Shown piece by piece: positions 61,021 through 63,635 of a DNA stretch of 64,000 nucleotides (position 1 is its first letter; each line of letters opens with the position of its first letter). The DNA comes from Patescibacteria group bacterium. GTDB taxonomy: Bacteria > Patescibacteriota > Patescibacteriia > UBA9934 > GWF2-40-263. The translations under genes and the position numbers were made by a program. Where the stretch lies: NCBI GenBank assembly GCA_038065075.1, contig JBBTRQ010000019.1:9456-73455 (forward strand), read 5' to 3'. Below the pieces are notes generated by a model, which ran no database searches, was not told the DNA's origin, and saw nothing but the letters and a program-made list of their open reading frames with translations.

Positions 61021-63635
61021 AAGACCTTTTTCAACACGCGCTTTAGGTACTGACCTGTGTAACTCTTTCCGTGTCGAGCGACATCCTCAGGGGTGCCGGC
61101 AATCACCAACTCACCGCCCAGGTCGCCGCCTTCTGGTCCCAGATCGATCACCCAATCGGCGGTCTTGATGACGTCGAGGTTGTGCTCGATCACGACGACG
61201 GTGTTTCCCTTGCTGACGAGTTCGTGCAAAACCTCGAGTAACTTTTTGACGTCCTCGAAGTGTAGCCCTGTCGTCGGTTCGTCGAGCAGATAGAGCGTTT
61301 TTCCTGTCTGTCTCTTGGCGAGCTCGGTCGACAATTTCACGCGCTGAGCTTCTCCACCAGAGAGCGTTGGTGCCGGCTGACCGAGCTTCACGTAGCCGAG
61401 TCCCACCCGCTTCAACGTCTCGAGTCGATCAGATACGGGCGGTATGTCTTTGAAAAACTCTGCGGCTTGTGTGACCTCCATCTCCAACACTTGGTAAATA
61501 TTTTTTTCCTTGTAGGTAATCTCGAGCGTCTCGCGATCAAATCGCCGGCTCTTGCAGACGTCACACGTAACATACACCGTCGGGAGGAAATGCATCTCAA
61601 TGGCGATGACCCCATGACCTTCACAATTCTCGCAGCGCCCACCCGGTCGATTGAAACTGAATCGTCCTTTCTTATAGCCACGGTATCGCGCCTCGGCCGT
61701 CGACGCAAAAATGTCGCGGATAGGATCCCACGCCCCCGTGTACGTTGCCGGGTTGGAACGTGATGTTCTCCCGATCGACCCTTGGTCAATCAAGATCGCC
61801 TTGTCGAGATACTCGATTCCGAGCACGGCCGTATGCGCACCTGGGTTCTGTTTCCCGCCGTAGAGTTTTTGTGAGATCGCCTTGTACATCGTCTCGTAGG
61901 CAAGCGTCGATTTTCCTGAACCGGATACACCCGTCACGCACACAAACCGTCGCAAAGGAATCTCCACGTCGATGTTCTTGAGGTTATTCTGTCGCGCGCC
62001 CTTGATCTTGATCGCGTCACGACCAGGAGCACGGCGCTCTGTTGGCACCTCGATCTTTTTGTCTCCGCGCAAGTACGCGGCCGTGAGCGAATGTTTGTCT
62101 TTAAGAGCTTCTGCCGTCGGAGCCGAGACAATCACCTCGCCACCGTTCACACCGGCGCCAGGACCGATTTCGACGAAGTAGTCGGACGCGAGCATCGTGT
62201 CCTCGTCATGCTCGACAACCAAAACGGTGTTGCCGATATCACTCAGGTCCTCGAGTGTTTTGATGAGCCGGTCATTGTCACGCTGGTGCAACCCAATGGT
62301 CGGCTCGTCAAGAACGTACATCGCTCCGACCAATCGAGAGCCAACCTGCGAGGCAAGTCGAATACGCTGTGCCTCACCACCCGAGAGCGTGCCAGCCATG
62401 CGATCGAGTGTGAGGTAATGGAGCCCGACGTCGAGCATGAACTGCAAACGATTCTGAATCTCTTTGAGTACCGAGCCCGCGATCTGCGCTTGTTTGTCGT
62501 TGAGGTCCAGAGTCGTAAAGTACTCGATCGCCTGCGCGATCGACATCTTTGAGATGTCCACGATCGAGGTGCCCCCCTCCTTTTCAAGGAGGGGTTGGGG
62601 GTGGTTATGCGTTGCGGGCAACCAAACAAACAACGCTTCCTGTCTCAAGCGCGCCCCAGAACATTTTCCACAGAGCTCCTCCGAGTAAAGCTCGGCGGTT
62701 CCCAGACCCGTACATTCAGGACAGGCGCCGTAAGGTGAGTTAAACGAAAAAAGCCGCGGTTCGATCTCGGGAAACGAGAAGCCATCTTTTGGACAACTGA
62801 ACTTCGCCGATAACAACTGCTCGGTGTCGTCTGGATAGATGATGTTCACGACATCCTCCCCGCGGTCGACGGCGATCTCGAGCGCATCGGCAAGTCGCTG
62901 ACGCGAATCTTTTGGACTCGTCTTGAACGCCGCCACGGGAATCGTGTCCACGACGATCTCAATGACGTGCGCCTTGTAGCGCGCGAGTTTGATCGGCTGG
63001 TCGAGACGGTGTTCCTTGCCATCGATCCGTACACGAGCAAACCCCGAGTTATAAAGATCGTACAACAGCTGGTAGTACTCGCCCTTACGTCCCTTCACGA
63101 CCGGCGCCAAAATCTTGACCGATCCCAAACCCGTCTCGTCATTGCGAGGAGCCGCAGGCGACGAAGCAATCTTCGAGGATTGCTTCGCTGGCGCTCGCAA
63201 TGACGAGTGGATAAGAACAACATCCACCATCTCCTCATTCGTGAGCTTCTGAATCTTCTCCCCACACGTCACACAATGCGGCTCACCCACACGGGCGTAC
63301 AAGACGCGGAGGTAATCATAAATTTCCGTGATGGTCGCGACGGTCGAACGCGGATTACTGCCATGTGCCTTCTGGTCGATGGAAATGGCTGGCGATAACC
63401 CTTCGATCTCATCCACGTCTGGCTTCTCCATCTGTCCCAAAAATTGTCGGGCGTAGGCAGAGAGCGACTCGACGTACCGACGTTGCCCCTCGGCAAAAAT
63501 CGTATCTAACGCCAAACTCGACTTCCCTGAACCCGACACGCCGGTGAAGCAAATAAGTTTATTGCGCGGCAGCTCAAGGCTGATGTTCTTGAGGTTATGC
63601 TCCCTCGCGCCTTTGATGGTGATTTTGTCTTGCAT
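61017..63635 (-). CDS. uvrA: Excinuclease ABC subunit A
   Basis: Two ABC ATPase modules ([10 protein letters not shown] ×2) and Zn fingers. Carries in-frame insertions of repeat family A (62574-62609, [11 protein letters not shown]) and family C (63137-63204, [23 protein letters not shown]). Confidence 0.9.
62574..62609. repeat. Repeat family A copy, inside uvrA and in frame
   Basis: CCCCTCCTTTTCAAGGAGGGGTTGGGGGTGGTTATG, identical to the ligA copy. Confidence 0.7.

Follow-up and report, generated by a model that had tools for sequence, protein, structure and literature searches.

The uvrA gene of a Candidatus Uhrbacteria bacterium, a member of the candidate phyla radiation (CPR)/Patescibacteria, carries within its reading frame a 73-nt palindrome that belongs to a dispersed repeat family, here called family C. 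The gene lies in a 64,000-nt stretch of contig JBBTRQ010000019.1 (assembly GCA_038065075.1, positions 9,456 to 73,455 of the forward strand), hereafter the window, whose own numbering is used throughout. The element is probably a non-autonomous dimer of repetitive extragenic palindromic (REP) units of the CGTC type, lodged in a permissive loop of UvrA, where its translation would yield a disordered and near-neutral linker; most likely UvrA tolerates the insert as a passenger, with no functional part for it to play. In-frame REPs in uvrA were already known, and what is new here is the CPR host and, probably, an uncatalogued repeat family.

The extended palindrome, which is nearly perfect, begins with CTCGTCATTGCGAG and ends with CTCGCAATGACGAG. 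It contains two pairs of inverted cores: the outer core GTCATTGCGAGG at 63138-63149 on the plus strand, with its inverted partner at 63193-63204 on the minus strand, and the inner core CGAAGCAATC at 63162-63171 (plus) and 63178-63187 (minus). The CGTC tags are found at the outer ends, one at 63137-63140 and its inverted partner ending at 63205. The two arms are unequal, the long one being GTCATTGCGAG-GAGC..GCGA-CGAAGCAATC and the short one GTCATTGCGAG-CG..G-CGAAGCAATC; direct reading of the sequence reveals additional 3-nt duplications, GAG and CGA, in the former. As a long arm stands opposite a short one, the family C dimer has polarity. The folding energy of the uvrA element is about -44 to -45 kcal/mol on both strands (z = -5.9 and -6.8), and the dimers of the window, taken as single strands, reach -44 to -58 kcal/mol on either strand (z between -5.9 and -7.5). 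The single family C units of the window, in turn, fold no better than shuffled sequences.

The original prediction, made from the letters of the window, was of a dispersed palindromic family with an in-frame copy in uvrA, and the core counts bear it out. The outer core occurs nine times with at most one mismatch, against 0.47 expected, a number that none of 100 shuffled sequences reached, and the inner core has eight exact matches, against 0.26 expected. The core motifs are thus present at 20-30 times their chance frequency, and the copies can be aligned. In total, the window holds three dimers (63135-63207, 26061-26145 and 52518-52626) and two single units (49093-49138 and 27561-27618; Table 1), with CTT, CCT or CTC as unit tails. 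All the copies that had been named are real: the intergenic one between rnhA and recJ, a half copy placed near 49094-49139, which is a single unit, and one described as fused to a family B repeat at 52522-52610. The last of these ends at 52626, however, with the family B hairpin nested in its right arm, and an in-frame copy in recJ had been missed. The tags of the 52518-52626 dimer are CGTC at 52521 and TGTC on the right arm. The unit at 49093-49138 probably lies upstream of the real start of the open reading frame (ORF) at whose edge it is found.

The minus-strand ORF 61017-63797 encodes UvrA, with a phmmer E value of 0 against the Geobacillus stearothermophilus structure 2R6F and other solved UvrAs, with the ATG at 63635 as its true start. 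Its frame continues across the element as the 24 codons of residues S144-E167 (63135-63206), and the flanks on each side match UvrA with no frame change. Two of its three frames are open in either orientation, the third ending in TGA; the one in use has no stop and gives a hydrophilic, Ser/Ala/Pro-rich peptide (mean Kyte-Doolittle value -0.96). Solved UvrAs have at this point a loop of ~5-6 residues, between MVDRLLSY and KMQILAPIV of 2R6F. The insert splits the Pfam domain UvrA_inter, which is the UvrB-binding domain, near its N-terminus. In an AlphaFold2 model built with 94 homologues (mean predicted local distance difference test score, pLDDT, of 81), the insert is located between the helix 133-145 and the strand 172-178, with residues 147-169 below a pLDDT of 50 and devoid of secondary structure. 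It is, as modelled, the first loop of the UvrB-binding domain, exposed at the surface and predicted to be disordered. The note had suggested looking for a solvent-exposed loop in the insertion or signature domains; the loop belongs to neither of these but to the UvrB-binding domain. A Pfam scan of the repeat-encoded peptides returned no match.

Since the segment is missing from solved UvrAs, from most of 120 Candidatus Uhrbacteria UvrAs and even from relatives 93% identical to the window protein, comparison of the sequences identifies it as an insertion; it is not conserved in UvrAs of unrelated phyla, the observation that would have told against the original prediction. Excision at the RNA level, in the manner of an intron or an intein, was considered and is unsupported: every carrier is in frame and free of stops, which would not be needed if the segment were removed before translation.

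Regarding its class, family C conforms in anatomy to the CGTC-tagged REPs that Di Nocera, De Gregorio and Rocco described (2013; BMC Genomics 14:522; PMC3733652). Those elements have a CGTC, TGTC or CCTC tag, a stem of 8-9 bp that starts with AT, a loop of 4-5 nt and an unpaired 3-nt tail, mostly CCA; they occur mainly as inverted dimers, in several phyla, and a dedicated transposase is absent. GTAG and CGTC REPs were also described there in frame within uvrA, uvrB, uvrC, recBCD, DNA ligase, DNA polymerase I and dnaE2, including two REP dimers in Thioalkalivibrio uvrA and two insertions in each of the two Opitutus terrae uvrA genes (PMC3733652). Family C shares with them the unpaired CGTC/TGTC tag, the AT stem, the short CCA-like tail and the inverted dimers with a variable spacer, as well as the spread over many phyla, the lack of an adjoining transposase and the copies that add 20-30 residues in frame to uvrA and to further genes of replication or repair.

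A scan of one genome per species with the pattern GTCATTGCGAG-N(8-38)-CGAAGCAATC matched at least 120 loci, against about 8 expected by chance. Among the matches listed, the same cores are found in more than 120 species of many phyla. The hosts include Bradyrhizobium together with numerous other Alphaproteobacteria, Gammaproteobacteria, Nostoc, Pedobacter, Chryseobacterium, Chloroflexota, Planctomycetota, Omnitrophota, Zixibacteria, Helicobacter rodentium and some Patescibacteria. All of them have a common layout, with conserved outer and inner cores, an interior that varies in each arm and a variable spacer. The 120 loci listed, all from other genomes, contain 147 units, every one of which reads tag-ATTGC...GCAAT-tail, with a stem that begins with AT. 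The tag is CGTC in 74 units, TGTC in 60 and another sequence in 13, and never GTAG; the 3-nt tail is most often CCA (57), CTC (43) or CCC (17). Both inverted cores follow downstream, in order, in 75 of the 147 units, and 56 of the 120 loci hold a complete dimer. By this anatomy family C belongs to the CGTC-tagged REP superfamily, already published, and is not private to the genome studied here.

Within the superfamily it is probably a variant or an uncatalogued family, as judged from the published descriptions of CGTC-1 to CGTC-4. Unlike these, family C has an ATTGC...GCAAT stem, a long variable interior and a G/A-rich internal loop, and it was filed as a variant because the stem and loop geometry differs. 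Its peptides (SLRA/SLRG...RND) are not among the intragenic peptides listed for CGTC-1 to CGTC-4, and its CPR host belongs to a group that was unsampled in 2013 (PMC3733652). Rfam searches of the window and of 12 loci from other phyla, at gathering and at permissive thresholds, gave no family matching the element, only chance-level miRNA matches (E of at least 0.07). Plasmid and phage collections are nearly empty of family C, with eight plasmids and two partial matches in phage records (host Helicobacter canis) and no annotation. Literature searches with DNA or peptide strings of the element retrieved nothing relevant, and a keyword search for such repeats in CPR nothing specific. A conserved mini-hairpin with compensatory changes in the unit interior was also examined and not used, its support being weak: perfect stems of at least 3 bp occur in 19% of the interiors, against 10% after shuffling. 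One locus, L006 (1372-1506, Chloroflexus sp.), has three head-to-tail copies of one unit, with a period of ~50 nt, unlike the inverted dimers found elsewhere.

Two other systems invite comparison. REPINs (REP doublets forming hairpins; Bertels and Rainey 2011, PMC3116915) likewise consist of two inverted REP units that form one long hairpin and are patchily distributed among close relatives, and in both cases single units look like remnants of dimers. However, REPINs carry a GTAG tag cleaved by a REP-associated tyrosine transposase (RAYT) and are accompanied by a single-copy RAYT gene flanked by REPs. The Rickettsia palindromic elements (RPEs), as far as they are presented in the accounts of Ogata et al. 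(2000) in PMC10969869 and PMC3733652, are also found in frame in many unrelated housekeeping genes of a small-genome bacterium, and their insertions are there judged compatible with protein structure, as appears to hold for family C. [quoted passage not shown] The RPE-1 type, in the same accounts, is about 100-150 bp long and specific to Rickettsia, whereas the family C core is shared by more than 120 species of many phyla; the link to RPEs is drawn from the literature.

The uvrA site was then compared among the 120 Candidatus Uhrbacteria UvrAs, which are 71-100% identical to the window protein and were placed on a neighbour-joining tree. The length of the loop varies greatly; most proteins lack the element, and the loop can instead be filled by unrelated segments of many lengths. 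Two members of the same 90% cluster, P0243 and P0244 (93% identical), have the short loop EKATGDK and are without exactly this segment, and the P0028, P0078 and P0092 group has visibly decayed versions of it. Six carriers were checked at the DNA level: the window, L121 (GCA_016209265.1), L123 (GCA_024653765.1), L129, L130 and L131. In all of them the four core blocks are intact except for single-base changes in L121 (GATTGCTTTG) and L131 (GATTACTTCG) and for the left outer core of L123, which is split after GTCATTGCG by a nested family B hairpin. The hairpin energy of the six carriers ranges from -38 to -67 kcal/mol, against -2 to -10 kcal/mol for empty loops. The tree of the six closest genes is star-like, and in each of its two closest pairs, window/L122 and L121/L132, one gene carries the element and the other does not. 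That one ancient insertion was later lost is unlikely for this closest clade, where the empty alleles (EKVVGEK, EKATGDK) resemble the loops of outgroups; independent gains or allele exchange are the alternatives.

In the preferred explanation, a CGTC-type palindromic dimer entered uvrA and survived there on three conditions. Its site is a short surface loop of the UvrB-binding domain, after the first helix and before the first strand, whose length varies across the group; the net length added preserves the frame; and the frame used is free of stops, its hydrophilic peptide being carried as a disordered loop. The data show the membership of the repeat family, the status as an insertion, the frame, the position in the loop, the predicted disorder and the patchy occurrence among relatives. 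Beyond this, the peptide would be translated and near-neutral, and the element would spread by a process at the level of DNA that targets its hairpin or cruciform.

Several observations fit poorly with a neutral REP dimer of the published kind. Perfect pairing within a single unit is limited to the 5-bp ATTGC/GCAAT stem around an interior of 8-40 nt, so the published stem and loop are not matched. The carriers share not only the loop but also the orientation, with the short arm first, and the frame, and the element is found at no fewer than six separate positions of the tree, beside relatives with short unrelated loops or decayed remnants; chance and a permissive loop explain such copies only in part. 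Between the window and L121, uvrA has a nucleotide identity of 80.6%, falling to 51.2% for third positions, whereas the inserts are identical at 72 of 75 nt (96%), including 25 of 25 third positions (P about 5e-8). At the protein level the order is reversed, the insert being less conserved than the rest of UvrA in this pair (88% against 94.5%). The codons just outside the element differ freely, and the 16 codons downstream of it are only 69% identical. In deeper pairs, where gene third positions are 38-45% identical, the non-core positions vary and the cores are kept, save for the two substitutions and the nested insertion described above. Passive decay alone fails to predict this conservation of cores and insert. 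The nucleotide sequence may be under constraint, it may be exchanged with other copies, or it may be installed again and again at one site.

The conservation just described supports the main rival, in which selection or an active process preserves the nucleotide sequence itself: as a cruciform or protein-binding site, as an mRNA hairpin that tunes expression, or through homing-like or gene-conversion re-installation. Conservation of the insert exceeds that of synonymous sites and of its own flanks, the cores are nearly unchanged in six uvrA genes with saturated third positions (38-51% identical), the distribution of the insert departs from the gene tree in the window/L122 and L121/L132 pairs, and the hairpin is very stable in every carrier. 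The recJ region points in the same direction. The minus-strand recJ gene (ORF 26145-27944) contains a family C unit that adds ~30 residues between the equivalents of residues 104 and 110 of PDB 8Y30. This insert is missing in 118 of 120 RecJ relatives, the only other carrier, P0125, being from the same genome as L123. The recJ inserts of the window and L125 have identical termini (GTGTCATTGCGAG and CGAAGCAATCTCTTC) around unrelated interiors of 36 and 78 nt. Three states are found in the adjacent recJ-rnhA spacer: empty in L127 (3 nt, 4232-4234), a single unit in L125 (30 nt, 3237-3266) and a dimer in the window (~95 nt). By its sequence, the L125 unit looks like what a dimer would leave after a deletion between its GCAAT direct repeats. 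In this spacer, as in recJ, the window and L125 agree in the termini and have wholly different interiors.

On the other side, the patchy distribution and the decayed versions argue against a required function, the non-core positions differ freely between deeper pairs, and the strong conservation statistic comes from one close pair only. Nor was a candidate enzyme found among the ORFs near the units at 120 loci, and no Rfam family matches. When 1170 ORFs near the units at the 120 loci were clustered, no family recurred except spurious translations of the repeat, and no transposase-like ORF recurred within 400 nt of the units. Y1 transposases or RAYTs were not found in the window or in 8-kb neighbourhoods of the 120 loci, nor Pfam transposase families in the window ORFs scanned. 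A GIY-YIG nuclease was dropped as a partner, as it follows a unit in only two loci, with a weak third match, and in none of the window; in those two loci (L040 5078-5419 and L112 254-581) the unit stands immediately upstream of a small GIY-YIG gene (58% mutual identity) whose ORF reads out of the repeat. Covariation between arms is uninformative on this point, the paired cores being near-invariant and the arm interiors often unrelated. Maintenance of the nucleotide sequence is regarded as unlikely on the whole. The specific proposal that the element is maintained across Uhrbacteria, either by homing-like transfer or gene conversion through an enzyme recognising CGTC REP hairpins or by selection on a hairpin, in DNA or mRNA, with a regulatory effect on uvrA, is improbable to much the same degree.

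An adaptive role of the peptide, as an addition that modifies the UvrA-UvrB interaction or the repair activity, is far less plausible still. The insert does lie within the UvrB-binding domain, and 6 of the 11 in-frame repeat events of the window are in replication or repair genes (two in uvrA, one in recJ, one in ligA and two in dnaX), which account for ~13 kb of the 56 kb that is coding (binomial P = 0.024, post hoc and uncorrected for loop content). Such genes had been remarked upon as recurrent REP hosts, and REPs within repair genes were speculated to create mutator-like variants (PMC3733652). However, conservation of the peptide is below that of the remaining protein, disorder is predicted for it, and relatives 93% identical are without it; the same loop also accepts unrelated segments of widely differing length. 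Insertions should be readily tolerated by large multi-domain proteins with flexible loops, which may simply account for the excess in repair genes; other hosts are lepA, pilM and a peptidase gene.

A classical MITE, which derives by deletion from an insertion sequence, has terminal inverted repeats and target-site duplications and depends for its movement on the DDE transposase of that insertion sequence, would also be short, palindromic, dispersed and non-coding, with inverted-repeat termini. Yet no direct target duplication was found at the three dimers or between filled and empty recJ-rnhA spacers, where diverged flanks blur the boundaries, and the flanks instead extend the palindrome. Single units occur alone, no parent element or transposase stands beside the 120 loci, and the tag-stem-tail anatomy is that of a REP; a MITE is regarded as highly improbable. 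Finally, although repeats are known break points of metagenome assemblies, a chimeric join in this metagenome-assembled genome, or an ORF that is not uvrA, is hardly credible, as the exact protein occurs on three contigs, its six-member 90% cluster includes an insert-bearing 872-aa sequence of another assembly, the independent assemblies GCA_016209265.1 and GCA_024653765.1 have the same insert at the same site, and UvrA aligns on both sides of it without a change of frame.

The neutral REP dimer remains the preferred reading, and the window contains further repeats that accompany it (Table 1). The claim that uvrA carries two different repeat-derived insertions holds: a family A repeat (CCCCTCCTTTTCAAGGAGGGG...) is also inserted in frame, and residues 344-352 have a pLDDT below 50. 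The window and L122 both carry this repeat, read in different frames (TTPSPSLKRRG... in L122), and it is absent from three close relatives, L121, L123 and L124. Around this point (UvrA ~311-360), the window UvrA and all 120 Uhrbacteria relatives (835-931 aa) are without ~80 residues of the DNA-contacting insertion domain of solved class I UvrAs; in the alignment, residue 352 of the query jumps to chain residue 421 of 2R6F, and no PF17755 match was found.

Family D has the same design of tag, AT stem and tail and, from its sequence, is probably a sibling of family C and also a CGTC-type REP. It is in frame in lepA, twice in dnaX and, as a dimer, in an M23 peptidase gene, which contains in addition a family B-like match. 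Family B is nested in family C twice, in both cases after GTCATTGCG, at an identical point of the arm: at 52583-52614 in the window and at ~3420-3460 in the uvrA of L123. This repetition suggests a preferred target within family C or a composite subfamily. Very small hairpin repeats inserted into other repeat units were reportedly described in cyanobacteria by Elhai and colleagues in 2008. The nesting of B in C resembles them, with different sequences and in a different phylum, a comparison that serves only as a lead.

In the neighbourhood of uvrA, an Rfam DUF3800-IX RNA motif is found just upstream (63705-63769, plus strand; 59 bits, gathering threshold 36.8). It overlaps the 3' end of a DUF3800-family ORF (63745-63996, minus strand) that runs off the window. 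Elsewhere, at 30318-36605, three paralogous WD40 beta-propeller genes (1.1-kb repeats, 84-91% identical) flank a gene for a 988-aa AAA ATPase.

Table 1. Repeat elements of the window and the uvrA coding sequence
Feature	Position	Strand	Description
uvrA coding sequence	61017-63635	-	872 aa, identical to database protein P0001; host of the insert
Family C element in uvrA	63135-63207		73 nt, cores 63138-63204; inverted dimer of two CGTC-tagged REP units, near-perfect palindrome
Long-arm REP unit	63137-63171	+	CGTC tag, then ATTGCGAG-GAGCCGCAGGCGA-CGAAGCAAT-C
Spacer/loop between units	63172-63177		TTCGAG, 6 nt
Short-arm REP unit	63178-63205	-	Minus-strand sequence CGTCATTGCGAGCGCCAGCGAAGCAATC; comes before the long arm when uvrA is read
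Family C dimer	26061-26145		Between recJ stop (26145) and rnhA start (about 26052); CGTC tag at 26064
Family C single unit, in frame in recJ	27561-27618	-	VSLRGSTPKPRAKRGGTEAIS; TGTC tag at 27619
Family C single unit	49093-49138	+	TGTC tag at 49092; 5' edge of ORF 48561-49136
Family C dimer, intergenic	52518-52626		Family B hairpin 52583-52614 nested in right arm directly after GTCATTGCG
Family A, second in-frame uvrA insert	62571-62609		GCCCCCCTCCTTTTCAAGGAGGGGTTGGGGGTGG; at the site of the insertion domain of other UvrAs, junction of the missing ~80 residues
Family A, in frame	22169-22207		ligA (NAD-dependent DNA ligase)
Family A, in frame	45964-46002		Unknown ORF 45339-46109
Family B (CCCGCCGTCGC...GCTATGGCGGG)	25174-25199		In frame in pilM
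Family B	52583-52614		Nested in family C
Family D (GTCATCCCGAG...TCGAGGGATC)	29565-29598		lepA (HPERAKRVEGS)
Family D	44124-44178, 44255-44296		dnaX
Family D	60875-60960		M23 peptidase gene; dimer
Family D	18681-18798		Intergenic

These results indicate that small CPR/Patescibacteria genomes carry REP-type palindromes inside essential genes, as Rickettsia does, and that the cores of the superfamily hardly differ between Bradyrhizobium, Nostoc and Uhrbacteria. Annotation should treat segments of this sort as repeat-derived loops and not as lineage-specific features of the protein. The same-site, same-orientation copies in uvrA, conserved above the synonymous background, offer a test case for how CGTC REPs spread and are maintained without a known transposase, and for whether they favour repair genes. 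If active maintenance were true, the uvrA and recJ sites of CPR would provide a tractable, dated system for the persistence of transposase-less CGTC REPs across phyla.

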